Below the pieces are notes generated by a model that searched no databases, had not been told where the DNA came from, and worked only from the letters and a program-made list of their open reading frames with translations. The position numbers and the translations under genes were made by a program. Positions 1,001-17,655 of a DNA stretch of 32,000 nucleotides are shown here, piece after piece; the stretch's first letter is position 1, and each line of letters opens with the position of its first letter. Origin of the DNA: Acaryochloris marina MBIC11017 (GTDB taxonomy: Bacteria; Cyanobacteriota; Cyanobacteriia; Thermosynechococcales; Thermosynechococcaceae); NCBI RefSeq assembly GCF_000018105.1, contig NC_009927.1, positions 324,088 through 356,087 on the forward strand. Reading direction: 5' to 3'.

Positions 1001-1502
1001 AGCTGAATATTGAAGTTTAAAGCTTATTAATAAATTGAATTAATGCTTTTTTTTGAAAAGATGATTTAACTTTAACATCTCTGTAAGTAATAAAAGGATT
1101 TTGGAAGTACTTTTTACATCTGTTCATAACAATCATATTACCAGTTAGAAAAGCTGATTAATTAAAACAAAGACTTATTCGTAAATTTATGGAAAGAAAT
1201 GAATAAAATATTAGCTATGTTGATGCTATTTAATTATCTTGACTATTTTTCAGCTTTATACTTTCCTTTTAGAAGTTTTTGATATCTAGTTTAATCTGAC
1301 ATTTAAGTGTAAATATTAAAATTTTTATATGTTTGCGTAAAATCTTTTAAGTTACCAGATAACTTACAGGCTATGTGAGACTTTTTTTGAGGGATTCAAT
1401 AAACCTTACAAATCAGATAAAAGCTATTGGGTGTTGAACATTCAGATGTTGCTCAAAGTCTTTGTAACCTGGCAAAATACTGCATAAGTTAAGGTCAGTA
1501 TG

Positions 1503-1704
1503 TGGCCCAATTAAAAGGTAGCTGATACCAGGTGCAATCAAGCACTTTTAGGGGCCTGAAACGACGTAAAAACGTTCAGATTAGAAATCACTCAATTACT
1601 GAAAGTTAAAGGATGTCGAGAAATATAAAGTCTTGAAATCCTTGATCTATATAGCTTTCAGTCTTTATTGCACCTGGAGTCATCGACCCCTCAATTGGGC
1701 CAAG
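1503..1704. repeat. ~200-bp element bounded by 36-nt imperfect inverted repeats (MITE-like, or a long hairpin) just downstream of the DyP gene
   Basis: The left arm (1503-1538, tggcccaattaaaaggtagctgataccaggtgcaat) matches the reverse complement of the right arm (1669-1704, tggcccaattgaggggtcgatgactccaggtgcaat) at 29 of 36 positions by hand count. The first 10 and last 11 nt are perfect. An inner actgaaag/ctttcagt inverted pair is also present. I saw no clear target-site duplication. Confidence 0.4.
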
Positions 1705-1734
1705 ACGTGGTTCTTTCTTATTCCTCTAAGGAAA

Positions 1735-3420
1735 CTATTTTGCCAGTATGTCATTCAATGCTGAAATCGCAGGCGCAAACAAATACTCTCCACCAGTCGG
1801 CACAACAAAATCTTGTTGGGTTTTAATTTCAGTCGTCTGGTGTTCACCGGGGAACTCGATATGCCGTTCTCTATTCCCTGTCGATCCGTTCTGGCCTATG
1901 ACCATGTCGTGCCCACCTTGATTTGGCTGAATTGCTGAGTTCGCCCAACGTCGTTGTAAAAACTCAAACTGATCTTCAATACTTGAGTTATAACAAACAA
2001 ACATTAAACCTCTGTCTAGCAGTAAGTCCTCATCGCTTAAATCTGGATTGCCAGCGATCGCTGGTCCATAAGGTATGCCGCGGCGCAAGATCATTCTAGC
2101 TAAGTTATCTTCTGGCTTTCCTAAATCGGTAACACTTTCTCTCGGATTGACTTTTCTAATGTGCGCGAAATGAGGGCAAACTTTGGCGAGAAAATCAGCT
2201 TTCGCCTGTGGAAACGAGTCTCCTGGATAATGGCTATCACTGAACTCAATTTCGCTTGTGTTGTCGTCAAATAGAAAATGATTGTTTGCAAACGCGTTTT
2301 TACCAAGCTCAGGCAATTCACTGTTAGGGCTTCGCATCAATGGAGCACCACTAGGCCAGCGACCAACCAAACGAGAGGCAAACTCTATTACGTCAATGTT
2401 TAATGATTCCGCAGTGCTACTAACAAACCCCCAAAACGCGGACACATCTTGATGTAAGCGTCTTACTACCACGTAAGAGCCAAGCTTTGCCCAGCCGGGA
2501 ATATTTGTCTGGATTCGCCCTTTAAGATATAAGTGTTCAGTGCTTTGACGTGGCTCTCCTAAAAGAAACTGACCTGGCCAAACCAATAACTGCCCTGGCT
2601 TGGCAAAATAATCTTTGCGTTCGTCGGTACCAGCCACATAACGTGGGGTGATAAAATCGCCAGGGCGTTCAGACAGTTTTCCCCGTATTCCCGGCTGCGA
2701 AATGCCATCTTTAAAGCCAAAATGTTCGTGGCCTCTAAACTTGCCTGGTAACCGCTCCCCTGGTTGTTCATATTGCAACTCGATGCCCTGATCTTGCGCA
2801 TGTTGTTTTATCAATGCCACAAATTCTTGCAACTGATCTTTGGAGTTCGCAGCGGTCGTGATCATCATGTCGATCTCATTATTGGTACCACCAAAACGCC
2901 AATTCGATTGATGGCCAGGACTAGATTCATCGCTAGGATCACCTAAGAAAGTTGACCTTTTGGCCATTCCCAAACGAAAACTGTCATCACCAAATTTATT
3001 GGCTTCTTCATCCGAGGTTAGTTTTGCTATGCCCGTGTATGAAAATGACAAATTCAACCAAGCTGACGACAAATAAGTTTCCCTTTGACCCAGTTGAGCT
3101 CGGCGTTGCCGATGTATTTTTCGAAACTTTAAAACTTCATAAGCGCTGGATATAGATACATAGGGGGAAATTAAACGCAAGAATTGTTTAGGAGAGCTGC
3201 CAACTCCAAAACTTAAAAACAAAAAGTGCTCATAATTGGTATTAAACCCGAGCAGTAAGTTTCCTTGTATATCTGACAGTGTGGCTTCGTTGTAAATAGG
3301 TTCGTCAGCCGATTGATCGTATGGACTGGGCTCAGGTTTATGCTCTAGCGGTGTATCGTCAATATTTGCTTCAATAGTTGAAAATAAGTCTTTTAGTTCC
3401 GTGAAATTAGCGTTGTCCAT
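1735..3420 (-). CDS. Dye-decolorizing (DyP-type) heme peroxidase, long form (561 aa)
   Basis: The DyP signature GxxDG lies in HFGFKDGISQPGIRG. The proximal-His block is FAHIRKVNPRE and the distal-Arg block is ILRRGIPYG. No Tat or signal peptide and no obvious encapsulin-targeting tail. A GGAGAA Shine-Dalgarno (SD) lies ~9 nt upstream of the ATG. Confidence 0.9.
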   Translation of the reverse strand: MDNANFTELKDLFSTIEANIDDTPLEHKPEPSPYDQSADEPIYNEATLSDIQGNLLLGFNTNYEHFLFLSFGVGSSPKQFLRLISPYVSISSAYEVLKFRKIHRQRRAQLGQRETYLSSAWLNLSFSYTGIAKLTSDEEANKFGDDSFRLGMAKRSTFLGDPSDESSPGHQSNWRFGGTNNEIDMMITTAANSKDQLQEFVALIKQHAQDQGIELQYEQPGERLPGKFRGHEHFGFKDGISQPGIRGKLSERPGDFITPRYVAGTDERKDYFAKPGQLLVWPGQFLLGEPRQSTEHLYLKGRIQTNIPGWAKLGSYVVVRRLHQDVSAFWGFVSSTAESLNIDVIEFASRLVGRWPSGAPLMRSPNSELPELGKNAFANNHFLFDDNTSEIEFSDSHYPGDSFPQAKADFLAKVCPHFAHIRKVNPRESVTDLGKPEDNLARMILRRGIPYGPAIAGNPDLSDEDLLLDRGLMFVCYNSSIEDQFEFLQRRWANSAIQPNQGGHDMVIGQNGSTGNRERHIEFPGEHQTTEIKTQQDFVVPTGGEYLFAPAISALNDILAK

Positions 3421-3424
3421 CTTT

Positions 3425-4411
3425 TTAATTCTCCTGCCCTTTTTGGGTACCTGCTGAGCCCACTATGCCGACCGTAATGTGCTCGGCTAGCTGTGCGCCA
3501 TACTGAATTTCATGGCCGCCAATGGTCAAGTCACTTACTTGAAAACCTAAAGCTTTAGGAACGGAATACTCCAAACGCATAACCTTGCCATTGGAACCTC
3601 TCTTGGGTTGCCACCACTCAATAGGGGCAGGTGAGCCGTCCGGCTGAGCGATTCCACTGTTGTCCCAACCAAAAATATAAATGCCAATAGGTTCTTGAAG
3701 GCTGACGTATAATTTTTTGCGCAATAGCATGTGGACGTCGTAATCGACTCTTGGATCGACCGATGTCGTATATGTTGCAAAAGCTGGGTTAGCCTGATAG
3801 TTGTTGGCAGCATCAAGCGGGAACATGCTCATTTCTTCTGCCAGGCCAATAGCAGCGCCGAGAGTATTAATGTCTTGAGTGAAATGCATTATGCCGTCAG
3901 TTGTGTTCCAGCGATTTAGAATATCATAGTCGCCATTTCCATTCATTAGGTCATCTTTTTTAACTGGTTTATCTAGGGTGTCTTTATAAATTTCAACGAC
4001 TTTATCAGGATCGAATTTCCACATCTCTTCATAGTAGTTGTGCAGCTCAGTGGTAAAAGTAATCCTTGTAATGGCGTCATCGTCTTTATGGACATACCAT
4101 TCAAAATATTCGTCTTGCTCATGCCCTCTATCTTTTCGGTTCGCATTGTCTGCAGTTCTATATGCTTCCCATTTGTTGTCTCGTAAGTTTGGCAATAAGA
4201 CCCTTCTTGGAAATCCCATCCAGCTAATGGTTTTTTCTCCAATGATATCGACATCCACCTCAGCTGGATTATAAAAATGCCCCCCATTGGGGCCTGGAGT
4301 CTCTTCTGCGATAAGGCCTTTTACAAATTCATGCCATTTTTCATAGAAATCACTATCGTCATCAAAATCTTTAATAGACGCAGGTGTGTCAAATTGAGTA
4401 ATCAGAGACAT
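3425..4411 (-). CDS. Hypothetical acidic 328-aa protein, translationally coupled to the downstream DyP peroxidase
   Basis: A long ORF whose stop lies 4 nt before the DyP start codon, and the DyP SD sits inside its last codons. I recognise no family motif (it contains EQDEYFEWYV and TRITFTTELHNYY blocks). No signal peptide. Confidence 0.7.
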   Translation of the reverse strand: MSLITQFDTPASIKDFDDDSDFYEKWHEFVKGLIAEETPGPNGGHFYNPAEVDVDIIGEKTISWMGFPRRVLLPNLRDNKWEAYRTADNANRKDRGHEQDEYFEWYVHKDDDAITRITFTTELHNYYEEMWKFDPDKVVEIYKDTLDKPVKKDDLMNGNGDYDILNRWNTTDGIMHFTQDINTLGAAIGLAEEMSMFPLDAANNYQANPAFATYTTSVDPRVDYDVHMLLRKKLYVSLQEPIGIYIFGWDNSGIAQPDGSPAPIEWWQPKRGSNGKVMRLEYSVPKALGFQVSDLTIGGHEIQYGAQLAEHITVGIVGSAGTQKGQEN

Positions 4412-5017
4412 TTCACTCTCCTTAGCTGATGGAAATGAAGAATGGTATTATTTGGACGCCACTAAACATATTATCCAAAGTAAATACACATACATTGTCA
4501 AGATAGACAATCAATAAATGTTTGTGAAATATATGTTATTAAGCGAAAACATTCCCTTTATAAATTTGACTGGTTTGTAGCTCTGATACTTTCAAATCTA
4601 AATCGTTAACCAAGCTTGGAATAGAATTAAGAGCTCCATGGCATCTGTCTAGACACGAGTGATCCGTAGCGGCCTATTCTCATCTACAGGTCCTACTTTA
4701 ATCAATCTTTCTTGCCCCGTAGTTACAAAAGGATGATCCTGATCAAAAAATAAACGTGGTCCTCGATCAGAATTTGGAAAATCTTGCAATATGTTGCTTA
4801 AAGGCCTTAGCCAAAGCTCTTTCTAGCTATGGAATAAAACCCAAGTGAGTTGTGAATTAGGTGGATAATTTTCAATCGGCATTATGCTCCCGCAAGCACC
4901 CCCCAGATCAGCAGGTTCCTAGGAGTTGAGCAATGCTTCACCTAGAGATTCGAGCTGATCCCTTTACTCGATAATAGCTATCTCTATCTTCACCCAGCTG
5001 AAATCACCTGCTAAGAC

Positions 5018-8000
5018 TTAGTTTTCAACTGCCCCCAATGCCAATAGTGTGTGTTTTTGAGCTGGGGATAAACCTTTCATCTGAGTAATGTTCATGCCTG
5101 CATAGGGCTTAGTGGGTCTTAGTGTTCTTATACACTCACCAGTTTGAACATGCCAAAGTTTTATAGTTCCGTCAAAACTGCTACTAATAAGACGCTGACC
5201 ATCAGAACTAAAGGCTACTGAGGTGACACCATTTGTATGCCCCTCTAAGATTGCCAAATGCTTATGTGTTTCAACATCCCAACATCTAATCGTATGGTCT
5301 AAACTTGCAGTGGCAAGTAGTTGACCATTTGGACTAAAGGCAACATCCCAAATTTGACCTGAATGTCCTTCAAAAATACATATACAATCGTTAGTCTTAA
5401 AGTCCCAAAGTCTAGCTGTTTGATCAACACTCCCACTAGCGATAAAGTGCTCATTTGGGCTAAATGAGACGGAACTCACCCCCGATGAATGCCCTTTCAG
5501 AGTGTTTAAACACCTACCTTCTTGGATATCCCAAAGCTTAACAGTGCGATCAAAACTTCCACTCGCTAGTATTTCAGCATTCGGACTAAATGAGACAGAC
5601 CAGACCCAATGGCCATGTCCCTGAAATGTCTCCAAACATTCGCCGCTATGGATATCCCAAAGTTTGGCAGATTGATCTAACCCACTACTAGCAAGGAATT
5701 TTCCTTTCGGGTGAAATGCCAGTGACCAAATTCCATTAGAATGCCCTTTTAAGATCTTGATGCACTGCCCATTAGAAATATTCCAAAGTCTTATGGTTCG
5801 ATCACCTGTTCCACCCCCACTAGCAATGATTTGGTCATGAGGGCAATAAGCGACGGATCTGATAGCATCTGTATGCCCTGGAAAGTCTAAGCAATTGTGG
5901 TCTGAAAGTGACCAGACCCTTAGGACTTGGGCATCACCACCACTAACAAGAATCTGTTCATGTTGCTTCTCTGTTTCGGAATAGTTAAATGAACCGAAGG
6001 GAGTAGTTGCAAAAATGGCTTCAAATATGGTGAAAGTACATCCCGATAATGTTCTCAAGCATCTGCCTTTATTGTAATCCCATAGCCTAATGGAACCATC
6101 TTGGCTACTACTAGCCATAATTTTTTGAGTAGGATTTATGGCCACAGACCAAACCCAATTTGTATGCCCCAATAAAGTTTTTAAACATTTTCCAGTTCTA
6201 ATGTCCCAAATTTTTATCAGTTGATCTGCGCTACCACTAGCAAGGTAATGACCAGAGGAACATAATGCAATCGAGCGTATAGAATTTGAGTGTCCAAACA
6301 ACTTCTGTATACATTCACCACTCTGTAGATTCCATACCCTGATAATTGGATCATCGCAGGCACTCACGAGCATTTGTCCATCAGGACTGTACGCGATTGA
6401 CCAGACCCATCCAGCATGACCAGCCAATACTTTCAGGCATTGGCCGCTCTTAACCTCCCAAATCCGAATGGTTTGGTCAGCATATCCACACGCTAGTTCA
6501 TGATTATCAGGACTAAAGGCAATTGATCGGGCTGCTGCCCGGTATCTGAAGCTCTTCAAAAATTGCCCTGTTTGACTATTCCACAGCCTAACAGTGAAGT
6601 CATCACTACAACTTGCAAGGAGTGTACCGTCGGGACTGAATGCTACTTCCCAGATGAAATTAGTATGTCCCGATAAAAGTTTTAAACATTCTCCAGTACG
6701 TACGTTCCAAAGCCTAACAGTCTGGTCTGGGCCAGCACTGGCCAGCAGATGATTGGTCGGACTGAAGGCCAAAGATTTGACCCAGTTTGTATGTCCGCTA
6801 CAAGTTAAGAGGGGTTGCCCATCAGGAACTCGAAGAAGACGAATCTCGCCTTTAAAATCTCCAGCGGCAATGAGCTTGCCATCTGGGGAGAAAGCAATCG
6901 ATAGGATACCTCCAAAATCCTTGGAAAAGACTGACTGAGATAGATCTGAGTGAGTGAACTTAACCCCATGCAAGTTGAGTCCTCGTAGATCAGCTTGCCG
7001 AATTGTGAGGTGAGAAAAGTCGTAACCACAGAAATCTACAGGTAACTGTCGGAGCAAATTCAGAACATTTCCTGCGACATAACCTGCTTCTTCCGACGAT
7101 TTTCCCCGCACCACTGAAAGGAGTTGAACCAAGCAGGCTTCAAGGTGTGCTCTACTGCCTAGGACCTTTACCAGGCTAACAATTAAGGGTTGCAAGATCA
7201 GGCGAATCTGAGTGTCTTTGATATAGTCTTTCGCCTGTGCCTTTATGAGTGCATGAGTACGGAACAGATGCAATTGATTTTCCTGTCTTTCCTCATACTG
7301 TTGTTGCTCCTGAATCTCGGTACAAATTTGCTGAATGAATTTGTGGGCTGTGAACTCCATCACCACAGGTTGTTGGGTGAATCCAGTCTCAGTTTGGTCA
7401 ACCAAAGATCGACGTTGCAGCGAGGTTATCGACTGCAACAGGTCACCTGGGAGAACTTGAACCATCAAATCGAGGGCCAATTGCTCTAACTGGGCAGGCT
7501 CGCGATTAATGGTGAGCCAATACATTACAGCCTGTTCTATCTCTGATAGCCTTTCAAACTGCTTGTTGAGGAGGTCGTAGATATCCTCAAGAACGAATGG
7601 CTCCATCTGTGAGAAGCTGAGGAAACGAGAAAGACTTCCTTCAAAGCATTCTTTAATGGTTGATGACACAATTTTTAGAGCTAAGGGATTACCCGCATAG
7701 TGCTTGTTTATAGCGGACCACTCTTTTTCCGTTCCTGTGAATATGCCCTTAGTTTTAACCAAGGTCTGACAAGCATTAGTTGATAACCCTTTCAACTGCA
7801 AGCATCGAACTGGCAGGGAGTCTCCCTCCATCGCTGCAATTCCTTGTGGTTTTTCCCGAGCGGTCACCAAAACACAACTGCTGTGGGTAGCTTCTCCAAA
7901 CATTTCAAAGAGCTTGGCATAGTCTTCACAACCGGATCTATAGCGACCTGTGCGATCACCACTTTGCAATAAGGACTCTGCGTTATCTAAAATCACTAGA

Positions 8001-8824
8001 CAACGTGAGGTGCGCAGATAACTCAGAAGTAGCGAAATTTGAGATTCTATTCCCTTGGGTAAATAGTTTTCTTGTTGATTCGAGAGAAACTGGATGAGGT
8101 CAGACAAGATTTCTGTAATAGGTGGGGCACTCGCAAGACTGCGCCAAATTACAAAATCGAAGTCGTATTGGACTTTTTGAGCAAGTTGTATGGTTAGCGC
8201 TGTTTTACCCATACCTCCCATTCCGAGTACCACTATGAAACGGCAGTGTTCATCGACCAACCACTGGCTCAAAAGGGTCAGCTCAGTTTTGCGTCCATAG
8301 AACCAGGAGACATCAATAGCACTCCCCCAGTCTCGATTTCTTGTATCTAATTGGAGATCTGGATTAGCTAGGAACGAATTGACTGGTAACGCACTCGATT
8401 TCTGGTCTGTGGCCTGTTTAGACTTGAATGGCCGACGTTGCTCCCATTCCTCATCAAATTGTTTTAAATTGGCAACTTTATTGTGTCGCTTATACCAAAA
8501 GTTGAGCGTAAAATGCCATTTATTAGAGCCTTTAGGTTGAGAACGATTGTCTGTGAGAATATCTACAAACTGTTCTAGGAGTTTGAGTGATATCTTGATT
8601 TGGTCTTTACTTAGCTCTCTATTAGATGGATATTTTTTACTTAGCTCAGCTAAATCTTTAATAGTAGTTTCTACGACTAACTGTTGGTCTGTTTGCCAAT
8701 TTACCAGTATTTGAGAACGGAGTCGATCTTGTATTTCGAATTCATCATTGGCATAGGCCAGTATAACCTCTAGAAGAAATTTGGTCCTTTTTCTTGGGGT
8801 AGGGCCATAGCTTACTCTTGCCAT
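5018..8824 (-). CDS. STAND NTPase (NB-ARC/NACHT-like P-loop) with an unassigned N-terminal domain, a pentapeptide-like linker and 14 WD40 repeats
   Basis: Walker A GMGGMGKT is at aa 201-208 (nt 8201-8224). Walker B is CLVILDNAE. A helical arm follows. The stretch FSHLTIRQADLRGLNLHGVKFTHSDLSQSVF is pentapeptide-like. I counted 14 GH...WD/WN units by hand, enough for two 7-bladed propellers. Confidence 0.9.
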   Translation of the reverse strand: MARVSYGPTPRKRTKFLLEVILAYANDEFEIQDRLRSQILVNWQTDQQLVVETTIKDLAELSKKYPSNRELSKDQIKISLKLLEQFVDILTDNRSQPKGSNKWHFTLNFWYKRHNKVANLKQFDEEWEQRRPFKSKQATDQKSSALPVNSFLANPDLQLDTRNRDWGSAIDVSWFYGRKTELTLLSQWLVDEHCRFIVVLGMGGMGKTALTIQLAQKVQYDFDFVIWRSLASAPPITEILSDLIQFLSNQQENYLPKGIESQISLLLSYLRTSRCLVILDNAESLLQSGDRTGRYRSGCEDYAKLFEMFGEATHSSCVLVTAREKPQGIAAMEGDSLPVRCLQLKGLSTNACQTLVKTKGIFTGTEKEWSAINKHYAGNPLALKIVSSTIKECFEGSLSRFLSFSQMEPFVLEDIYDLLNKQFERLSEIEQAVMYWLTINREPAQLEQLALDLMVQVLPGDLLQSITSLQRRSLVDQTETGFTQQPVVMEFTAHKFIQQICTEIQEQQQYEERQENQLHLFRTHALIKAQAKDYIKDTQIRLILQPLIVSLVKVLGSRAHLEACLVQLLSVVRGKSSEEAGYVAGNVLNLLRQLPVDFCGYDFSHLTIRQADLRGLNLHGVKFTHSDLSQSVFSKDFGGILSIAFSPDGKLIAAGDFKGEIRLLRVPDGQPLLTCSGHTNWVKSLAFSPTNHLLASAGPDQTVRLWNVRTGECLKLLSGHTNFIWEVAFSPDGTLLASCSDDFTVRLWNSQTGQFLKSFRYRAAARSIAFSPDNHELACGYADQTIRIWEVKSGQCLKVLAGHAGWVWSIAYSPDGQMLVSACDDPIIRVWNLQSGECIQKLFGHSNSIRSIALCSSGHYLASGSADQLIKIWDIRTGKCLKTLLGHTNWVWSVAINPTQKIMASSSQDGSIRLWDYNKGRCLRTLSGCTFTIFEAIFATTPFGSFNYSETEKQHEQILVSGGDAQVLRVWSLSDHNCLDFPGHTDAIRSVAYCPHDQIIASGGGTGDRTIRLWNISNGQCIKILKGHSNGIWSLAFHPKGKFLASSGLDQSAKLWDIHSGECLETFQGHGHWVWSVSFSPNAEILASGSFDRTVKLWDIQEGRCLNTLKGHSSGVSSVSFSPNEHFIASGSVDQTARLWDFKTNDCICIFEGHSGQIWDVAFSPNGQLLATASLDHTIRCWDVETHKHLAILEGHTNGVTSVAFSSDGQRLISSSFDGTIKLWHVQTGECIRTLRPTKPYAGMNITQMKGLSPAQKHTLLALGAVEN
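5135..6919 (-). repeat. Array of 14 WD40 repeat units (~126-nt period) inside the STAND NTPase gene
   Basis: Recurrent GH(T/S)N.(V/I).S(V/L)AFSPDG..LAS.S.D.T(I/V)(R/K)LW(D/N) units in the translation. Coordinates are converted from aa ~636-1230. Confidence 0.85.
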
Positions 8825-8917
8825 AATTGGACCTCAAGCAAATCTATGTATTTTTTTTCTTACCTCAAGTATTTATCAGTGATTTGCACGGTATTTACGC
8901 AAGGAGTTCTAGCATCC

Positions 8918-9150
8918 TAAATAAAAAAATAGTTAGGGTATCCCTTAACTTTGATACCTACCCTTAACTTTCAAAGGCTTGATTTATAAAGGATTTAAGG
9001 TAGAAAGTTTACTTCTTGCTTGGTGTCAGTTTTCTCGCCTAGTTTGAAAGCATGAAACCTCAAAGAACTAACTGCATATCAATCAGTAGGAAGTTAAAGA
9101 TATTCTAATATATCTGAACAGCAAAGTATAAAATGCGAACTCATTAAATT
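8918..9150 (+). repeat. Copy A of a ~220-bp conserved non-coding module, upstream of ORF133 and divergent from the STAND NTPase gene
   Basis: It hand-aligns with 11043-11280 at roughly three quarters identity. Shared blocks include gttag, acctaccc(t/c)taactttcaa, taaggta, acttcttgc, ttgaaag.atgaa, aaaga.ctaact.catat, tatatctgaa and aatgc.aactc. The small ORF inside it is not conserved (18 codons in A, 3 codons in B), so the conservation is not coding. Confidence 0.65.
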
Positions 9151-9272
9151 GATAACCCATGAGCATTTTATGAGTAAAATGCTCAAAAGCTATTTCAATT
9201 CTTTTAAGTATTTTATTCTGAAATATATGCAAATACTAGCTTCAATGAGAAAAGAAAAAATGGAGAAATATA

Positions 9273-9674
9273 ATGCCGATACTTAGTGATTTCACGACTA
9301 TCGTTGGCAATCAAAGAATACTTATTGGTGATAATTCCAATAGTAGTGGTTTCACATCAAACTTTAGGACTGCAGAGAGAAGAAGCGATCGAAATGCATT
9401 CATCTCTTTCATGGTAAGAGGTATGACTCAAACAGACGAAAATGCTGAAGTCTTTGTTAATGATATACGAATTGGAAGTCTAGAGAATAACAATGGAGGT
9501 AATATAAATCTATGGCATACACAGTCAATAACACTCTCTGGGGATCGCTTAAATGACGGAGAAAATACCTTAAGAGTAGACACTGTACCAATAGCTCCTG
9601 GCACCCAAGGAGTTGGAAATTTTGATGATTTTTTTATAACGAATGTGATTTGTCATTTTCATCAAGATTCCTAG
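9273..9674 (+). CDS. Hypothetical 133-aa protein, probably an all-beta fold
   Basis: ORF with a GGAGA SD 6 nt upstream of the ATG. Preceded by repeat module A. Contains EVFVNDIRIGSL...WHTQSITLSGDRLNDGENTLRV, which is reminiscent of jelly-roll/lectin-like strands but is not assignable by eye. Confidence 0.6.
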   Translation: MPILSDFTTIVGNQRILIGDNSNSSGFTSNFRTAERRSDRNAFISFMVRGMTQTDENAEVFVNDIRIGSLENNNGGNINLWHTQSITLSGDRLNDGENTLRVDTVPIAPGTQGVGNFDDFFITNVICHFHQDS

Positions 9675-10166
9675 AAATAAGCTTGTTAGTTCGGATTTTG
9701 TGAGAAGTTTGCTAAACTCTTTTCTTCATAAATATTCTGAAACAGGTAGAGTCTATGATGCTCCCACTCTTGATCATCATTGAACTTCCTAGTTAAGGAT
9801 GTAAAGCTATTTACCTTCTTGTAACTAATGAGGTAAATCATTAGAAACTAATCGCCAAAGGAATTATATTCCGAGATTATCTGGACAGACTTATAGCTTA
9901 ATACTCTAGAACTCTTTTCTTCTTGATTTACTAATTGTTATGAATTTTATGTATTTTAAGAGGATTGATGGCACAACTTTTTGCGCAATATTAGCAGCTA
10001 ATTCTAGCACAATATTAGCAACCAACTAGAGCGCAGAGTGAGATACACTTTGCTTTTCTAATGTTCTACAGGGTAGGAATAATAGACTAAGTTGAGAAAA
10101 CTATGTATTCTTGGCACTTTGGCTGTCATTATGCGCAGACAAATAATTAACTATTAGGAGACAATC

Positions 10167-10523
10167 ATGACTAAGACTAAATCTATTTCGGATGCACATC
10201 AGCGCGTTTTTAAACTTGATGTGGAAGAAGTAATGAAGATCGTAAAACGTGGTAAACCCTTGACAGCCGATGAACTCGAAAAGTACGGACCTGATGAATT
10301 CTATTTAGCCGATCAGGTACCTGAAGAGCCTGCTTTGCATAGGAATATTCCGTTACCCGCTGAAGTAGGTGACCGTATTTTCCCAAATGTGGTCTTAGTA
10401 AGTCCATTCTTCTGCTGGTGTTCAAGCTATACATGGTGTCTCGAAATTGATGAATTTGGGCGATTACGTTATGTGTTGAAGTGCAATTACTGGTGCATTC
10501 CGCAGTTCCAAGTTTCGGCATAG
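10167..10523 (+). CDS. Hypothetical 118-aa protein with a hydrophilic N-terminal part and a Cys/Trp-rich C-terminal 40 aa
   Basis: AGGAG SD 6 nt upstream of the ATG. C-terminal tail is VSPFFCWCSSYTWCLEIDEFGRLRYVLKCNYWCIPQFQVSA, with Cys at aa 83, 85, 91, 106 and 110 and Trp at aa 84, 90 and 109. Confidence 0.6.
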   Translation: MTKTKSISDAHQRVFKLDVEEVMKIVKRGKPLTADELEKYGPDEFYLADQVPEEPALHRNIPLPAEVGDRIFPNVVLVSPFFCWCSSYTWCLEIDEFGRLRYVLKCNYWCIPQFQVSA

Positions 10524-10777
10524 AATTTTGGGGCTACATGATTAAGCGGAAATATTATTATTCCTTTATGATTTTGATGTAGTCCTGAAAATCATTTCCT
10601 AAACTTTAGACCCTGAAAAAATCGATTGATAGCTATGGATTATTTGCCTTCCTGTTGCTCTATTAGATACTGGTCTCTTAAGAGGATCTAGATTACCGTA
10701 ACCCTTGCGCAATAAACATTTGAATCTTCTCTCGTTATTTACTTTTAATCCCACATAACTAAATGATTTTGACCGCT

Positions 10778-10990
10778 CTAGATCCTGGTAATAGACCAGT
10801 GCCTAATGGGTAACTCTTTCTGCTGACACCCCAGATACAGAAACTTCAAAATGTAGTTGAATATCTTGAACAGAAAGAGCTTAAGCTGAGGCCCTCTAGT
10901 TCCGATGTGTAGATGTGGCAAGGCAAATGTTTCAAACTGCTCTAGGGTCAAGCAGGTTGGAATCCATTGATTGGAATGGGTTTGGGTATC
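10778..10990 (-). pseudogene. Relic of an IS5-family (DUF4096-type N-terminus) transposase, N-terminal ~70 codons only
   Basis: My minus-strand translation reads RADTQTHSNQWIPTCLTLEQFETFALPHLHIGTRGPQLKLFLFKIFNYILKFLYLGCQQKELPIRHWSITRI*. This matches the remembered consensus LT.EQF..FVLPHL..G.RGP...L.KIFNYILK.LYTGCQWK.LPI. There is no Met, the frame is bounded by stops, and the conserved W is replaced (QWK becomes QQK). Confidence 0.55.
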
Positions 10991-11042
10991 TGCCCTCTAA
11001 ACGAACGTCAAACTAAAAGACTGAACTCATTTTAGTTAATAT

Positions 11043-11280
11043 CTCAAATTAAAAAAGTTAGAGGAACCTCTATCTTTGAAACCTACCCCTAACTTTCAAC
11101 ATCTTAATTTAAAAGGGTTCTAAGGTAAGGAAACTACTTCTTGCGTAGTGATAGTTTCCTTAACTACCTTGAAAGTATGAAGTCTTAAAGAGCTAACTTC
11201 ATATAAACCCAGTAACAGCATAAATTTATTCAGATATATCTGAATAAAATAGCAGTGGCAATGCAAACTCTATCCAATTT
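11043..11280 (+). repeat. Copy B of the ~220-bp conserved non-coding module, upstream of the PatA/PatG-family protease
   Basis: See copy A. It also contains an 11-bp hairpin stem (11126-11136 pairing with 11152-11162) and a perfect 24-bp palindrome at 11225-11248. Confidence 0.65.
11225..11248. promoter_or_regulatory. Perfect 24-bp palindrome TTTATTCAGATATATCTGAATAAA, a candidate dimeric-regulator operator ~85 nt upstream of the protease ATG
   Basis: The reverse complement of the first 12 nt equals the last 12 nt exactly. The equivalent position in copy A (about 9098-9117, tattctaatatatctgaaca) keeps the right half-site TATCTGAA, but the left half is degenerate. Confidence 0.4.
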
Positions 11281-11332
11281 CAGCCTTGTTTGAGAGTGTA
11301 ATGTTTCGATTACAGCTTTGAGGTTATCTGTT

Positions 11333-13294
11333 ATGACCAGTGCCATTAACACTAAACCTATTTTAATAGCAGGTCTATCTGATCTTTGGGTAGAAACTAT
11401 TGGAGATCCTCAGATTAGTATTGCTATTTTAGATGGTTTCGTAGATCAATCTCACCCTAGTCTTGCTGAAGCTAAACTTACAAATTTAGAAACTATTGCC
11501 TTAAAGGCTTCCCAGCAAGGTTCAGCAGCTCAACATGGTACCCAAATTGCAAGTATTATCTTTGGTCAGCATCAAAGTTTACTCAAGGGTATTGCTCCCC
11601 AATGTCGAGGTTTGGTGATTCCTATCTTTGCTGACGGGAATCAGCAGGCAATAGATAACAATAAGTTCTCAGAGACCATTGCCCCTTGCTCCCAACTAGA
11701 TCTTGCCAGAGCTATTCTTTTAGCGGCAAATCAAGGTGCCCATATTATTAACATCAGTGGTGGACAGCTCACGCCTAGTGGAGCGGCAGATCCGATTCTC
11801 ACTAATGCTGTTCGCTATTGTATGGAGAACAACATCCTGATTGTGGCAGCAGCAGGAAATGAAGGATGCAACTGTCTGCATGTACCTGGCGCTCTACCAT
11901 CTGTTCTGGTAGTAGGTGCAATGAGTGCTACAGGAACCCCCTTAAATTTTAGCAATTGGGGTGAAGCTTACCGGACTCAAGGAGTCTTGGCATTGGGTGA
12001 AAATATCCCCGGAGCTGTTCTTGGTGGAGGAATTACATCCAGTAGTGGAACTAGCTATGCCACAGCGATCGTTTCTGGCATAGCAGCATTACTGCTGAGC
12101 CTGCAAGTCAAACGAGGGCAGACTCCCAATCCTCAAGCAATTCGAACCGCTATTTTGCAGAGCGCACTTCCCTGCGATGATCGGCCTGCTCTAGAATGTC
12201 GCCGTTTTTTAGCAGGCCGCCTCAATGTAAAAGAAGCGCTGTCCATCATTTTACAAAAAGGAGAAACTATGAGTGAAAATATAGACGTAGAAACGGTACA
12301 ACCTGACTCTAATGGAGCTGTGCAGGCAGCGCTGTCATCAAATCAATCCCAGATTCCGGCTGTTCAGGCAGCGACGTATAATCCTCCCCCTACTGAGGTA
12401 ATGCCTCATCCCGCACAAGCGCAAATAAGTTTATTAACTCAGGTAAGTCCAAGTGCCATTTCTCCATCTGCATGTAGTTGTGGAGAGGGAGGTAAAACAT
12501 CATCACAAGCACCTAGTCAAGCACAGCTAGTTTATGCTCTGGGACAGCTAGGGTATGACTTTGGTACGGAAGCACGCCAAGATTCGATTCAGGAACACAT
12601 GGGCGAAGGAGCTAATCCTCACGATCCTCGACAATTTTTACCATACCTAGATGAAAATCCTTGGGATGCAGCTATGGTCGTCTGGACGCTTAGTTTAGAT
12701 GCCACACCAATCTACGCAATTCAACCTTTTGGAGCTTATGCCGAACAAGGATATGAGCGATTGCGACAGTTTCTTAAGGAGCAATTAGAAGAGGGTGTTG
12801 AACGTATTTCGGCTCCTGGTGTCATCGTAGGACAAGTAACGTTGATGTCTGGTCAAACTGTGCCTGTGATTCTGCCAACACTTCGCTGCATGTATAGCTG
12901 GACGACATCAGCATTGATTAAAACAGTTTGTGGTGAGTCTCCTGATGAGTCTGCCGTTCAAGGGGTAACCAACTTCTTGGAAAGAGTTTATTACGAGCTG
13001 AGAAATCTAGGAATAATGCCTCAAGAAAGAGCGATCAATTATGCAGCAACAAATGCTTTAAATATCGAGCGCATTTTTGAGGCAGCCATTCTAGAAGAGA
13101 TGGATCTCGATTCAATTGAAGTGGAACCGAGTCCCCTCTGTCGTCAGGACTCTGAGTGCTGGGATGTGAAACTGACGTTTTTCAATCCCAGGCGAGTGTT
13201 CGAACAAGCTAGAAAAGTTTATCGCTTCACAGTTGATGTGAGTGATATGTGTCCGGTGAGTGTGGGGAGAGTGAGATCGTGGTTTGTGAGGTAA
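11333..13294 (+). CDS. PatA/PatG-family cyanobactin-type maturation protease: an N-terminal subtilisin (S8) domain plus the C-terminal PatA/PatG DUF domain
   Basis: Catalytic triad blocks are AILDGFVDQSHP (Asp), AAQHGTQIASIIFGQH (His) and SGTSYATAIVSGIAALLLS (Ser). After a P/A/Q/S-rich linker comes LVYALGQLGYDFGTEARQDSIQEHM...WTLSLDATPIYAIQP...ERISAPGVIVGQVTLMSGQTVPVI, which closely resembles the PatA/PatG C-terminal domain as I remember it. The track ORF starts at TTG 11318, but ATG 11333 is more likely. Confidence 0.85.
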   Translation: MTSAINTKPILIAGLSDLWVETIGDPQISIAILDGFVDQSHPSLAEAKLTNLETIALKASQQGSAAQHGTQIASIIFGQHQSLLKGIAPQCRGLVIPIFADGNQQAIDNNKFSETIAPCSQLDLARAILLAANQGAHIINISGGQLTPSGAADPILTNAVRYCMENNILIVAAAGNEGCNCLHVPGALPSVLVVGAMSATGTPLNFSNWGEAYRTQGVLALGENIPGAVLGGGITSSSGTSYATAIVSGIAALLLSLQVKRGQTPNPQAIRTAILQSALPCDDRPALECRRFLAGRLNVKEALSIILQKGETMSENIDVETVQPDSNGAVQAALSSNQSQIPAVQAATYNPPPTEVMPHPAQAQISLLTQVSPSAISPSACSCGEGGKTSSQAPSQAQLVYALGQLGYDFGTEARQDSIQEHMGEGANPHDPRQFLPYLDENPWDAAMVVWTLSLDATPIYAIQPFGAYAEQGYERLRQFLKEQLEEGVERISAPGVIVGQVTLMSGQTVPVILPTLRCMYSWTTSALIKTVCGESPDESAVQGVTNFLERVYYELRNLGIMPQERAINYAATNALNIERIFEAAILEEMDLDSIEVEPSPLCRQDSECWDVKLTFFNPRRVFEQARKVYRFTVDVSDMCPVSVGRVRSWFVR

Positions 13295-13363
13295 CTAACT
13301 TCACTGCTGTAATGGTTTCTTGAATCAAGATTACTCAATTTATAGTTTTAGGAGAATAACAAG

Positions 13364-13552
13364 ATGAGAATTCCAAACCAGTCTATTGGTCAGATACGTT
13401 CTAACCCTGCAATAGAGAAAACCGCTGTCTCAGGAGGTGTACAGCCTTCTGGCCCCGGTTTGGGAAGGCTTTGTAACGAAATTTGCCGTTCTCCAGGAGG
13501 AGGAGGGGTTTGTCCTTTGTGTGAATTTCTCTCACTCGTACCTGGTTTCTAA
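13364..13552 (+). CDS. 62-aa Cys-rich small ORF, a candidate precursor or secreted peptide
   Basis: AGGAG at 13350-13354, 9 nt before the ATG. Sequence is MRIPNQSIGQIRSNPAIEKTAVSGG/VQPSGPGLGRLCNEICRSPGGGGVCPLCEFLSLVPGF, with a CxxxC...CxxC pattern. A perfect terminator hairpin follows ~20 nt after the stop. It starts 69 nt after the protease stop. Confidence 0.5.
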   Translation: MRIPNQSIGQIRSNPAIEKTAVSGGVQPSGPGLGRLCNEICRSPGGGGVCPLCEFLSLVPGF

Positions 13553-13573
13553 GGTAAAACTTGATCAACGGTG

Positions 13574-13605
13574 ATGTTTTGGGTGAGAGGATTCACCCAA
13601 AACAT
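13574..13605 (+). terminator. Strong stem-loop (13-bp perfect stem, 6-nt loop) closing the protease/small-ORF unit
   Basis: atgttttgggtga (13574-13586), gaggat loop, tcacccaaaacat (13593-13605). The downstream sequence is only weakly T-rich (ttctcgcaactgatttcggattttt), so it may act as an intrinsic terminator or as an RNA-stabilising hairpin. Confidence 0.55.
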
Positions 13606-13861
13606 TCTCGCAACTGATTTCGGATTTTTATATGGTTAACCTGAAATATTGGCTGTTAATGAAAAAACCCGAATCACAACACATCACTTTCTTCCTCTAA
13701 AACCTCAAACCGTCTTGTTTGAATTCCATTAAAAGAGGATGCACTACCTACAACTCGCTATCGACTGAACAGCCTTATAGAAAGGGATATAAACTCTTTC
13801 AGCAAGCCCATGCCATGAATATTTTGATTAGACGATATCTTATTACCGAAAGGAAAATACC

Positions 13862-14401
13862 ATGAGCAACGAACTTTTTATCAAAGGTCCTCACGTCCCG
13901 ATTGAGGAACGTGCGCTGGAACGATTAAAGCGTGCAGTGGAACTGGGTGAACTTGAAAAACTACCGAATACTCCGGGTATTCCCAACGTGCCGCGCTACC
14001 TGGTCACGTATATGAACTCACAAACTGTGAATACTCAGATGCGCTCAGCCACGGTCGTATCCGTGACCAACCAGAGTAATTTAATCAATCGAGTATTTGT
14101 TACATTCTTTAAGGGTTTCACGGACGACTCATCACCGATCGGAACTGCAGCGTTTGCTATCCCACCACAGTTCACGGTAGATTTTGCATCACGAAGCCTA
14201 CCCAGTGAATTGACGGTTACAAATGCTGTTCCAAATCCAGAATTAACTTTCGACGAGGGTCGTGCAATTGTATCGTCGATGTGGCCGGAAATTGGCGTGA
14301 GCGCACGTGTCTACTACACGGCTGGTGACAATGATGAGCGCCTACATGCCATCACCGACTCAAAAGTAGTCATTTATAGTAGAAGCAATAGCGGAGACTG
14401 A
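13862..14401 (+). CDS. Hypothetical 179-aa protein with codon usage unlike its neighbours
   Basis: ORF with a weak AAGGA SD. Many CCG/ACG/GCG/CGT/CTG codons, unlike the A/T-ending codons of the adjacent cassette genes. No recognisable motif. Confidence 0.6.
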   Translation: MSNELFIKGPHVPIEERALERLKRAVELGELEKLPNTPGIPNVPRYLVTYMNSQTVNTQMRSATVVSVTNQSNLINRVFVTFFKGFTDDSSPIGTAAFAIPPQFTVDFASRSLPSELTVTNAVPNPELTFDEGRAIVSSMWPEIGVSARVYYTAGDNDERLHAITDSKVVIYSRSNSGD

Positions 14402-14745
14402 CTACAGGGTCTAAGGATAACGAAGGCACCAAAAACGGCAAGGCAGCAATTTTGAGTTGTTCAATCTAGTAGAGGTAGATTCCCTGCTGCTTCCAGTGAA
14501 AAAATGGGATTACAATCCAAGTCTACGGTTTGGGAGCAAATCGTATTCCATACCCCGTCTGCTTGCAGCGGGGCAGTTGATTGACTTTTCCTTAGTAGAG
14601 GATATCTGCATGACCCCCAACTCGTCTCACTGAAGCCCAAACCACCAGCCGCCCCCCGCTGAAACCCTCGACGAACACCAGCACAACCATCACATACCCG
14701 GATAAGGTATCATTTCCGACCATCGCTCGAAACGATGATCTGCCA

Positions 14746-15228
14746 GTGAAGCGCAAGGTAGCTCCAGAGCCTGGAGACGATGATCGCAACCCCGAACCTA
14801 CCCTCAGATACAGCCGCAGAGAATCCACCGACACCCAGAGAACACAGCGAGGGTATTCAGCTCGGCATACAACTAGTAGAACCCGACCCCCCAGAGTCTC
14901 CAGAGCATTTGAGTCCAAGTTCAATGCCCTTGAGCGCAGACAGAAGAATTTGGTTCAGCAGACCAAGCAAAAGGGTCAGCTTGAGTATCTGACCGTTTCC
15001 AAAAGCAGCTCAGGGAATTATTGGATCACCATCGAAGGTAGTGGTAAGCCATTCATCAAAATTTCGTTTGAAACGCCCGAGTTTTGCTTCGAGTGCGCTT
15101 TGGAGCTAGAGAATACGTTCGACGTGTTGCAGGTTTTAAGACTGCGGCCAGGGGAAACTATCGAGCGGATCGAGGAAATGATCGGGGTGTGGTTGGAGCG
15201 GGAGAGGGGGAGTAGGGCTTGGGGATGA
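14746..15228 (+). CDS. Hypothetical protein; the start is uncertain (GTG), and the C-terminal ~70 aa is conserved in a downstream truncated paralog
   Basis: The C-terminal block GSGKPFIKISFETPEFCFECALELENTFDVLQVLRLRPGETIERIEEMIGVWLERERGSRAWG recurs at 15690-15908. The N-terminal R/T/P-rich part is GC-rich and open in several frames, so the true start is unclear. Confidence 0.45.
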   Translation: MKRKVAPEPGDDDRNPEPTLRYSRRESTDTQRTQRGYSARHTTSRTRPPRVSRAFESKFNALERRQKNLVQQTKQKGQLEYLTVSKSSSGNYWITIEGSGKPFIKISFETPEFCFECALELENTFDVLQVLRLRPGETIERIEEMIGVWLERERGSRAWG

Positions 15229-15689
15229 TAGGTTGTGGGCACCCAGCTTGTTTTCCTGTTTTAATAGTCGCTTGGGGAGAATAGCGGTTTTAGTGTAATT
15301 TGTGTAATCAAGATTTTGGTCACACATTCTGCAATCATATCAACTCAGATTTTGACCTTTAAAGTAGATGCATGGTTGGCATGTGTGACATTTTTATCGA
15401 ATCACGGATGTGTTCCATTACTGGGATAGAATTATTGTCAAGAGACTAACAACATCTCGCTTAGAAATTTCCGGGGGAAATGATATGTGGTCACATTTAG
15501 ATCGTTCTTTGGGATTATTTAGCTTAATCGCTGCACTGACCTTAGTTATTGTAGAGCCATTAACCAGTGGGGATTGGCAGTCTAAACCAAAGTCTAACTC
15601 TGCCTCGGATAAAATCATTCTAAGTCAAAAACCTGCTAGCTCTTTATCAGAGCATCTTCTGAGATAACGAATCAGGGAAGCCTAAATAA

Positions 15690-15908
15690 TTTACAGCTAT
15701 TGCCAGAAACATAGTAGGCAGTGGAAAGCCGCTCATCAGAATTCCGTTTGAAAGTCCTGAATTCTACTTTGAGTGTGCGTTGGAATTGGAGGATACTTTC
15801 GATGTGTTGCAGGTAATTGAGCTGCGGCCAGGGGAAACTATTGAGCGGATTGAGGAGATGATCGGGGTGTGGTTGGATCGGGAGCGGGTGAGTAGGGTTT
15901 GGGGGTGA
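15690..15908 (+). pseudogene. Truncated paralog (C-terminal 72 codons, no start codon) of the 14746-15228 gene
   Basis: My translation reads FTAIARNIVGSGKPLIRIPFESPEFYFECALELEDTFDVLQVIELRPGETIERIEEMIGVWLDRERVSRVWG*. It is bounded upstream by TAA at 15687-15689 and has no ATG/GTG/TTG. The track's minus-strand ORF 15672-15956 is its antisense shadow. Confidence 0.55.
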
Positions 15909-16197: not shown

Positions 16198-17655
16198 TCA
16201 GAATCCATGTAAGCCGTGGGTTGGAAAACCAGGACAATTTGAACAAAACATTGACCTGTCAACCGATTCCCCAACCCACAGGAGAAGTTCTATGAAAATT
16301 CTAGGCATTGACTTAGGCAAATACAACACCGCCGCTTGCTTATTTAATACTCAGACTCACGACACTCTCTTTTTCACCTTTAAATCCTTTGCGCGTGAAT
16401 TCAAAGCCTTGCTCTACCAAACTCAGCCAGAGCAGGTCGTCATTGAAGCTTGCACGATTACCGGTTGGGTTTACGACCTGTGCCGAGCAGAAGGCTTTGA
16501 TACTATTGTGGCTAACCCTACTCAAGAAGCTTGGTATTGGAAGAACGTCAAACGCAAAACAGATAAAGATGATGCACTCAAATTGACCAAGTTAGCTGCA
16601 CTTGGTCAGCTTTCCCCGGTCTACGTTCCACCTGCTGAGTCTCGTCAATATCGGCAACTTGTGAAATATCGTAAACGGTTGGTCGGCCAGACTAATAAAA
16701 CTCAAAATACAATTCGTGCATTATTTAACCAACAAGGAATCTCCATACCTACAGGGTCAAGAGCTTGGACAGTTTCTGGGATTGAGCAACTCCAGCGGTA
16801 TGCCAAAACGTTGTCTGATTGCTCGCTATTGTCTTTATGGCAGGGACAAATTGATTTAGAGCTAAATCGATTAGATGCACTATGGGAACAACTACATTTA
16901 GTCGATACCAAACTTACCGAGATTGCCAAACAAGATGCCAGGGTTCAGTTGCTCGAATCAATTCCAGGGGTAGGGCGTAAAACCGCAGAAGTAGTGGTGG
17001 CTTACATTGATGATCCTAAGCGATTCAAAAACGCAAGACAGGTAGGTGCTTATGCTGGATTGGTGCCGCGTCAACATCAGTCTGGCGATATGAATCGAAT
17101 GGGCAAGATCACTCGGCGTGGCCCTCGACTTTTACGATCTGCTTTAGTCGAGGCTTCTTGGGTGATGTTACGCTACAACTCCTGGGCTGCGGACTTGTAT
17201 CAAAGACTTTGTGGTGGTCAGAAAACTAGAAGGAAGCAAGCTATTGTTGCTGTCGCTCGTAAGTTATTAGTGCTTTGTTGGACATTGCTAAGAAAGCAAG
17301 AGCCATGGGACCTTGATAAGATAAGTCCCCTAGCAGCATAGACATTTTTCCTTTTGCATAATAGGTTTACGGATTTCTATATTCCCTTGATTGGGAAATC
17401 TACCTCAGAGCTTGGAGACCTTTCCTAGTCTGATTTGCTTCAAGATTGCAATTCCGAATAAGCCTGAGTTAATTTGCATGTCACTCGTGAGACGATACGA
17501 TTTAGCCAAAATGTATCGGAAACTCGGATAGTCGGTTAAGCCCTTATCCTATACATAAAGAAGAAAAGAGTTAACAAGAAAGGAGCCAATATAGATACTT
17601 ACCTAGCCAATAAAATGGCTGGCATTTATTAGGCTGCTAAAAAGTCAAAACAATA
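16198..17655 (+). mobile_element. IS110-family insertion sequence; boundaries are approximate
   Basis: An intact transposase gene flanked by unrelated truncated genes: a membrane-protein fragment on the left and an IS6-like fragment from ~17661 on the right. No terminal IRs, as is usual for this family. A 9-bp hairpin (gtgggttgg 16216-16224 / ccaacccac 16271-16279) sits just before the GGAGA SD. About 300 nt of non-coding sequence lies 3' of the CDS. Confidence 0.55.
16292..17341 (+). CDS. IS110-family transposase (DEDD N-terminal domain plus Transposase_20 C-terminal domain)
   Basis: MKILGIDLGKYNTAACL... is the RuvC-like DEDD start. IPGVGRKTAEVVVAYIDDPKRFKNARQVGAYAGLVPRQHQSGD...GKITRRGPRLLRSALVEA is the hallmark HhH/Ser block of IS110 transposases. 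Full length at 349 aa. Confidence 0.92.
   Translation: MKILGIDLGKYNTAACLFNTQTHDTLFFTFKSFAREFKALLYQTQPEQVVIEACTITGWVYDLCRAEGFDTIVANPTQEAWYWKNVKRKTDKDDALKLTKLAALGQLSPVYVPPAESRQYRQLVKYRKRLVGQTNKTQNTIRALFNQQGISIPTGSRAWTVSGIEQLQRYAKTLSDCSLLSLWQGQIDLELNRLDALWEQLHLVDTKLTEIAKQDARVQLLESIPGVGRKTAEVVVAYIDDPKRFKNARQVGAYAGLVPRQHQSGDMNRMGKITRRGPRLLRSALVEASWVMLRYNSWAADLYQRLCGGQKTRRKQAIVAVARKLLVLCWTLLRKQEPWDLDKISPLAA

Follow-up and report, generated by a model that had tools for sequence, protein, structure and literature searches.

Why should one plasmid hold, close together and in the same orientation, two related copies of a segment that encodes no protein, each placed just ahead of a different operon? 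The question is raised by a 32,000-nt stretch of Acaryochloris marina MBIC11017 (NCBI RefSeq assembly GCF_000018105.1, contig NC_009927.1, positions 324,088 to 356,087), referred to below as the window, in which a non-coding module of ~235 bp occurs as copies A and B. An original prediction, made from the letters of the sequence, had drawn a hairpin with compensatory stem changes in both copies and had taken the pattern as typical of a structured leader RNA, a small RNA or a protein-binding cis element. The analysis described here revealed a real but ordinary two-copy non-coding duplication, and the covarying RNA hairpin is not supported. The two copies are located as follows.

8913-9150, plus strand: module copy A, in the divergent intergenic region between an NB-ARC/WD40 gene (minus strand) and a gene for a 133-aa protein (plus strand)
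11040-11275, plus strand: module copy B, with the end of a truncated IS5-family element on one side and the gene of a PatA-type protease on the other

A and B are 72-75% identical over ~235 bp in direct orientation, with three small indels. A repeat search pairs 8926-9082 with 11051-11207 (75%) and 9084-9118 with 11210-11244 (74%), BLAST between the copies gives 74.4% identity over 203 nt (E 4e-28), and nhmmer returns an E value of about 1e-22. Past the module ends local alignment equals shuffled controls (heads P 0.32, tails P 0.56), and no extension of the homology into the flanks or the downstream proteins was found. At its 3' end the homology stops 122 nt from the ATG at 9273 in A and 57 nt from the ATG at 11333 in B. 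No open reading frame (ORF) is shared by A and B, all six frames hold stops, a hidden small ORF was rejected, and the mismatches between the copies are without codon periodicity (15, 12 and 12 by phase, P 0.79). The pair is a real, old duplication of non-coding DNA, lying ahead of two unrelated operons. Part of the original prediction was borne out by these data, namely two copies about three-quarters identical in one orientation, each upstream of a plus-strand gene and neither of them coding; the stem sequences that it quoted are also present at the coordinates given for them.

The window comes from an A. marina megaplasmid. Window positions 1-15902 are 99.97% identical to plasmid pREC1 (NZ_AP026076.1) of A. 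marina MBIC10699, a strain from the ascidian Diplosoma similis; pREC1 is a conjugative megaplasmid of 394 kb (MOBF, MPF_T). Over all 394 kb, no third copy was detected by nhmmer --max (with the profile and with each copy alone), by regular expression or by a covariance model built on the hairpin core. When A and B were compared by blastn with the 72,556 plasmids of PLSDB, among them plasmids from A. marina S15, MBIC10699 and Acaryochloris sp. 'Moss Beach', only pREC1 was hit; a 38-nt match on a 'Moss Beach' plasmid proved to be the end of an insertion sequence (IS), not the module. A third module sequence comes from Acaryochloris strain L019 (Logan SRR12447975), where an ortholog of A, 95% identical, occupies 4853-5107 in the same context, with a STAND gene on one side and genes for the 133-aa and a 118-aa protein on the other. 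Synteny between L019 and the window stops exactly at the stop codon of the 118-aa gene (window 10523), after which L019 has a peptidase_S74 gene and a beta-lactamase-family gene, and neither patA nor B is found there. The copy count by BLASTN that had been proposed with the original prediction, run on plasmids, thus stands at two copies on pREC1 and one ortholog of A.

Wider scans yielded chance matches or none. The species genomes of GTDB, scanned for TAACTTTCAA-N30-40-TACTTCTTGC, gave 14 matches, all in unrelated non-cyanobacterial metagenome-assembled genomes and attributable to chance, while the source genome, presumably masked, was not among them; because this pattern is stricter than the divergence between A and B, the result argues only against a young multi-copy family. 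JGI metagenomes scanned with ACCTACCCNTAACTTTCAA gave 20 matches, by pattern alone, the best of them (L031) inside a 769-aa ORF, and the viral contigs of IMG/VR gave 0. A search for paralogues of the NB-ARC/EAD4 gene, beside which a third module might have stood, ended with a best non-self match of 51% identity, too distant for use. Since A and B share only one exact 11-mer, word-based searches can miss an equally diverged copy.

The 5' border of B is made by a mobile element.

10805-11037, minus strand: truncated IS5-family element, consisting of the 5' part of a transposase gene and an IS end, which sets the 5' limit of B

Six other Acaryochloris plasmids carry copies that share ~77% identity with this remnant. 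All IS matches on those plasmids stop at window 11036/11037 and the A-B homology begins at ~11040, indicating that the 5' limit of B was set by IS insertion; judged from this border, the original sequence upstream of B is lost. The module as a part of the adjacent IS5-family element was rejected, as the IS copies elsewhere stop just ahead of it. An IS end, a miniature inverted-repeat transposable element (MITE) or another dispersed repeat was also discarded, given two copies in 394 kb and none on the other PLSDB plasmids (plasmids being searched by similarity); for a MITE, A and B in addition lack terminal inverted repeats, and the strict pattern scans gave chance matches only. The plasmid searches and the position of the IS end agree with the original prediction, in which the module was not recognised as any known repeat family. 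REP/BIME elements (repetitive extragenic palindromes and bacterial interspersed mosaic elements) and cyanobacterial MITEs such as Nezha are non-coding, palindrome-bearing repeated DNA. A and B resemble them as a non-coding palindromic repeat and differ from them in having two copies, no terminal inverted repeats and no target-site duplications. Beside the IS5-family remnant, a 31-nt inverted repeat with 84% complementarity is present at 10662-10692/10777-10807.

Palindromes in the two copies

Four inverted repeats, H0 to H3, are found in B, and their counterparts in A are degenerate. None is assigned to a strand.

11054-11077: B inverted repeat H0, AAAGTTAGAGG / CCTCTATCTTT, 10 of 11 positions complementary
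11123-11165: B inverted repeat H1, the hairpin of the original prediction, with 14-nt arms (13 of 14 complementary) and a 15-nt loop containing CTTCTTGCGTAGTG
9002-9035: degenerate counterpart of H1 in A, AGAAAGTT / AGTTTTCT, with 8 pairs including 2 G-T
11176-11203: B inverted repeat H3, TATGAAGT / ACTTCATA, 8 of 8 positions complementary, 12-nt loop
11225-11248: B palindrome H2, perfect over 24 bp, TTTATTCAGATA abutting TATCTGAATAAA, the whole being TTTATTCAGATATATCTGAATAAA

The left arm of H0 also matches 11086-11096, and at the H0 columns A reads TTAGGGTATCCCTTAA, with one double change of G-C to A-T. H3 keeps 4 of its 8 pairs in A. H2 lies 85-108 nt ahead of the patA start codon; at its columns A has only TTCTAATATATCTGAA, which is 82% complementary and not a palindrome.

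Taken together, H0-H3 of B comprise 45 pairs, 43 of them Watson-Crick and none G-U, a figure that carries ascertainment bias because the stems were defined on B. Compared with shuffled sequences, the whole B module folds with a z-score of -3.1 as RNA and, as single-stranded DNA (ssDNA), of -3.4 on the plus and -4.4 on the minus strand, and none of 200 shuffles did as well. The whole A module as RNA gives z -1.3, and its ssDNA value of -2.0 refers to 8913-9272, which is longer than the module and takes in a perfect inverted repeat beyond it. This 11-bp repeat at 9160-9185 (TGAGCATTTTA tgag TAAAATGCTCA), just 3' of A, has no counterpart ahead of patA.

At the columns homologous to the B stems, A can form 31 of the 45 as standard pairs, of which 26 are Watson-Crick and 5 G-U, whereas its composition predicts 38% (P 3e-5); this indicates that the palindromes, in an imperfect form at least, go back to the ancestor. 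A perfect ancestor with all divergence placed on the A branch predicts 30.4 pairs in A, compared with the 31 seen; if the divergence is split equally, the probability that B keeps 43 or more of 45 pairs is 0.003. Both members have changed in four pairs, where roughly four are expected from independent change, and three of these four still pair, which is not significant. Exact Watson-Crick symmetry, the lack of G-U pairs and a minus strand that folds equally well or better argue for palindromes at the DNA level rather than for a compensated RNA fold. The DNA palindromes of B may be bound by a protein or may have arisen through template-switch correction, and their asymmetry between A and B is the only feature that merits an experiment.

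A proposed control region or a possible relic

The genes that follow the two copies are listed here.

9273-9674, plus strand: 133-aa hypothetical gene downstream of A, no family match above threshold
10167-10523, plus strand: 118-aa hypothetical gene, no Pfam or NCBIfam match, conserved beside the 133-aa gene in strain L019
11333-13294, plus strand: PatA-type cyanobactin maturation protease gene downstream of B, with Peptidase_S8, PatG_D and PatG_C domains
13364-13552, plus strand: ORF of a 62-aa putative precursor peptide in the same operon as the PatA protease, with the leader MRIPNQSxGQxR

Small ORFs come after the protease gene in the window, the 62-aa ORF directly so. In three other organisms (L023 6025-6237; L024 8380-8703; L025 6728-6952 and 6983-7225) the same leader is found in small ORFs placed after PatA homologues, and the C-termini of those ORFs are variable and Cys-rich. 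From the shared leader, the 62-aa ORF looks like the precursor of a peptide that is ribosomally synthesized and then modified post-translationally (RiPP) in a minimal PatA-plus-precursor cluster; PatD, PatF and PatG are all missing from the window. Many cyanobactin clusters are thought to be inactive (PMC4558948), and the expression of the operon behind B is therefore uncertain.

It is tentatively proposed, with a little less than even confidence, that A and B are old paralogous copies of one upstream control region of promoter/operator type, whose function is putative. What we infer from the sequences extends to the promoter/operator function, the transcribed strand and the history of the two copies. 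The ancestral segment would already have held several short inverted repeats. B, ahead of an apparently intact operon of PatA protease and precursor, would have kept or perfected them as exact Watson-Crick palindromes, and A, ahead of the 133-aa and 118-aa genes in a conserved context, would have let them decay. The segment would act at the DNA level, supplying transcription-initiation signals and, in B at least, binding sites for a dimeric regulator, H2 being the best operator candidate. If transcription starts upstream of the palindromes, the same palindromes would also form stem-loops in the 5' leader. B would have come to its present place by rearrangement; its original upstream flank would have been removed when the IS5 element inserted, and the patA cassette would have been joined to it ~57 nt ahead of the patA start codon.

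Several lines of evidence are consistent with a control region. A and B share one orientation, and the plus-strand genes immediately downstream of them each possess a Shine-Dalgarno sequence of their own (GGAG ahead of 9273, GAGG ahead of 11333). The four palindromes of B are near-perfect, they are ancestral in A, and B is structured on both strands, while the module itself is non-coding, not part of an IS and limited to two copies on pREC1. The homology ends, at 122 and 57 nt from the start codons and within 3 nt of the IS end, resemble rearrangement junctions around a regulatory block. An analogous layout occurs in another organism, where an unrelated segment of ~240 nt is repeated before a homologue of the 133-aa gene and before another gene. 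The protein-binding cis element, which the original prediction had listed as one alternative, is plausible and is the part of that prediction favoured here, with its function remaining putative.

The non-coding segment just mentioned belongs to the ERZ893895 metagenome, where it is found at the loci of distant 133-aa homologues; its sequence shows no relationship to that of A and B. It is present at L021 40-290 and 2480-2720, in the same orientation before two different genes, and once at L022 1615-1905, and it opens with a terminator-like hairpin (CCCATAAAAAG...CTTTTTATGGG followed by a T run).

Duplicated or captured promoter regions ahead of horizontally acquired plasmid genes of A. marina MBIC11017 have been discussed as a general phenomenon (PMC11633204). 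A and B are similar to such captured promoter-operator regions in being a non-coding block directly upstream of operons with palindromes of operator size, and in that A lies in an ancestral, syntenic context and B at a lineage-specific, IS-flanked RiPP cassette. Unlike them, the module lacks, by eye, the HLR1/RpaB motif of that study. By analogy, rather than by demonstrated membership, A and B would work most like an ordinary duplicated promoter/operator block. If B is truly a captured promoter/operator, it would exemplify how a horizontally acquired RiPP cassette of an Acaryochloris megaplasmid became wired into resident regulation, and would offer a handle, through H1/H2 or the protein that binds there, to switch on an uncharacterised PatA-plus-precursor pathway.

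A number of observations weigh against a control region, in addition to the ascertainment bias in the pair count of B. Neither the three PatA homologues that were the closest of those examined (L023-L025, 72-74% protein identity) nor three distant 133-aa homologues (L020-L022) have the module in their upstream regions, as searched by blastn, nhmmer and local alignment with shuffled controls, and the upstream regions of neither group are structured comparably to B. Across the whole plasmid no sub-motif of the module recurs upstream of other pREC1 genes (regular expression search), so there is no sign of a regulon. The similarity searches covered plasmids, and the chromosome was covered by one strict pattern scan only. 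Inside A and B there is no sigma-70-like promoter with at least 9 of 12 matches to the -35 and -10 boxes at 16-18 nt spacing. Weaker promoter-like candidates common to both copies, picked by eye, are TTGC.T-N18-TA..TT and TAAGGT, and a -35 box is absent from many cyanobacterial promoters. A literature search found no transcription start site map for A. marina.

The pattern of divergence points the same way. Matches between A and B are spread as in a random permutation (longest run 11 versus a mean of 13.6), and tests of evenness gave P 0.18-0.84 (window-variance tests 0.18-0.50). Differences affect 28 of 90 positions in the B stems (31%) and 39 of 136 elsewhere (29%; Fisher P 0.77). Being even along the module and across stems and non-stems, they indicate no block under extra constraint. 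The substitutions are of all kinds, with 33 transitions and 26 transversions.

Such uniformity is what would be expected from a neutral relic of an old segmental duplication or recombination that has no present function, the B palindromes resulting from a short B branch or from quasipalindrome correction. This explanation is rather unlikely on balance, though it retains real weight. The four double-changed pairs equal the number expected from independent change, and three small indels in ~230 columns are in line with neutral decay by our rough expectation. B is bounded by an IS remnant, other partial duplicates of ~81% identity lie nearby (15030-15228/15710-15908), and an IS110 element marks the synteny break. 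Between strains (window versus L019), A is 94-98% identical, compared with 96-98% for neighbouring non-coding DNA and 84-92% for the 133-aa coding sequence, indicating that A evolves no slower than the non-coding DNA next to it. Nevertheless, four near-perfect palindromes in B would be improbable under drift at equal rates, as the probability of 0.003 above implies, and A and B still match in orientation and in their placement ahead of the genes. Correction of quasipalindromes by template switch during replication is established in model bacteria; here it is a candidate process only. If the copies are a neutral relic, they merely document how rearranged these plasmids are.

RNA and plasmid-site readings

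It is improbable that the module is a structured cis-regulatory leader RNA or a small RNA in which H1 and its conserved loop act at the RNA level, through mRNA stability, attenuation, or protein or RNA binding. The hairpin itself is stable in B, where 11123-11165 folds at -17.5 kcal/mol with plus- and minus-strand z-scores of -2.5 and -4.0, whereas the counterpart in A (z +0.44) reaches -9.2 kcal/mol, which 135 of 200 shuffles equal or better. The pairing originally drawn for A is in a register one aligned column off that of B; applied to A, the register of B leaves 4 of 11 positions unpaired, and the register of A leaves 2 to 3 of 8 positions of B unpaired. A hairpin in both copies was therefore confirmed for B, while in A it stands at the level of shuffles and in a shifted register.

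The claim of compensatory stem changes did not hold. In either register a single pair is changed on both sides, an equal covariation score is obtained with 165-177 of 500 column shuffles, and RNAalifold, given A, its L019 ortholog and B, misses the hairpin with a covariation term of +3.13, which is a penalty; resting on three sequences, these tests have almost no power. The original prediction had itself named a lack of significant covariation as counting against an RNA, and this was the outcome, albeit at very low power. It had also pointed to an outer pairing of ACTTTCAA with TTGAAAG. This pairing is retained in both copies, yet 7 of its 8 pairs are invariant, so that it provides no evidence for structure either way. 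By our estimate, an 8-bp complement arises about once by chance in 230 AT-rich bases.

Some features do suit an RNA. B folds better than shuffles as RNA, as given above, the loop of H1 is better conserved than its stems (3 of 15 positions differ, compared with 11 of 28), three of the four double-changed pairs can still pair in A, and the module lies upstream of genes in sense orientation. Against these, none of the 43 pairs of B is G-U (P about 0.01 if 10% are expected), the minus strand folds at least as well, no terminator-like site lies in or after either module, and neither the pattern scans nor the homologue upstream regions nor pREC1 turned up further homologues on which a structure could be tested. 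A scan of 8000-12000 with Rfam, on both strands and with permissive filters, gave best E values of 0.27-8.5, far under the gathering thresholds, all to eukaryotic small nucleolar RNA or microRNA models or to viral models; the statement that the module is no known riboswitch or RNA family was thus correct. Compared with the leader RNAs and riboswitches of Rfam, A and B are alike in their upstream sense position and in the stable predicted fold of B, and unlike in lacking an Rfam match, covariation, a stable fold in A and G-U pairs in B. On present evidence they are not to be counted as a new class of structured RNA.

Conjugative plasmids offer another comparison. The Frpo/ssi ssDNA promoters of F and ColIb-P9 are homologous non-coding modules of a few hundred nt, rich in pairing, that are repeated before gene blocks of conjugative plasmids. 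Elements of the Frpo type lie in the leading region beside oriT and fold into a single long, imperfect hairpin by which -35 and -10 boxes are recreated. A and B likewise belong to a conjugative plasmid, are repeated in one orientation ahead of gene blocks and show much intrastrand pairing, but B has four short hairpins, and the downstream genes encode a RiPP protease and small hypothetical proteins. A more far-reaching proposal, which we regard as a long shot, is that A and B may form a lineage-specific control element coupling the horizontally acquired minimal cyanobactin-type operon, with its PatA protease and Cys-rich precursor, to the regulation of the resident locus beside the STAND NTPase. 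The palindromes might then be read by a plasmid-encoded regulator, or as ssDNA during conjugation, the latter amounting to a Frpo-like entry promoter of unprecedented multi-hairpin architecture.

Least probable of all is that the module serves plasmid biology as a DNA site, be it a Frpo/ssi-like single-strand element, a recombinase target or the remains of a non-autonomous mobile element. The conjugative MOBF/MPF_T replicon encodes many tyrosine recombinases, the module is repeated in one orientation ahead of gene blocks, the exact Watson-Crick hairpins of B form a cluster with a good ssDNA fold on both strands, and H2 can be read as 9-bp arms with a 6-bp spacer, the layout of a tyrosine-recombinase core. 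Nevertheless, the hairpins are short and local instead of one long hairpin rebuilding -35 and -10 boxes; on the 394-kb circle the relaxase gene mobF occupies 44-48 kb, at least 139 kb away from the modules at 296-299 kb. A Frpo-like single-strand promoter was rejected on these two grounds. There are also no terminal inverted repeats, no target duplications and only two copies, H2 of A is not a palindrome, and no recombinase gene is adjacent.

Two further candidates were dismissed. Integron attC sites show the order R''(RYYYAAC)...R'(GTTRRRY), form an imperfect palindrome after each cassette and have an integron integrase nearby; here GTTAGAG/GTTAGGG precedes CCCTAAC, which is the wrong order, the last base misfits, and there is no integrase gene near. 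In a diversity-generating retroelement the repeat is found at the target gene's 3' end, and all differences fall on adenines in one of the copies; A and B were rejected as such a template/variable repeat pair, being non-coding and differing in all kinds of substitution.

Replicon and neighbouring genes

On the far side of A lies the following gene.

5018-8824, minus strand: STAND NTPase of 1268 aa that carries an EAD4 effector-associated domain at its N-terminus, NB-ARC and ~14 WD40 repeats; start codon at 8824

Its WD40 repeats show up in the DNA as a periodic repeat of 126 nt, and for the N-terminal 350 aa of the protein the nearest non-self relative is only 51% identical. On the other side of A, the C-terminus of the 118-aa protein is rich in Cys and Trp (FFCWCSSYTWC...KCNYWCIPQF in our translation). 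The window and strain L019 share 92-98% identity over the intergenic stretch 9675-10166, which separates the 133-aa gene from the 118-aa gene and is more conserved than the 133-aa coding sequence (84-92%); within it, at 10033-10053, lies the only terminator-like site of the area.

Collinearity with pREC1 is lost past window 15902, after which an IS110-family transposase gene is found at 16292-17341. The block of recA, recD2, a penicillin-binding protein gene and sepF, which comes next in the window, is elsewhere and inverted in pREC1. The partial duplicates 15030-15228 and 15710-15908 are 81% identical and old. The latter is a 42-codon fragment copy of the C-terminal coding part of a 160-aa ORF (14746-15228), and a third copy is present just beyond the window (L001 561-664).

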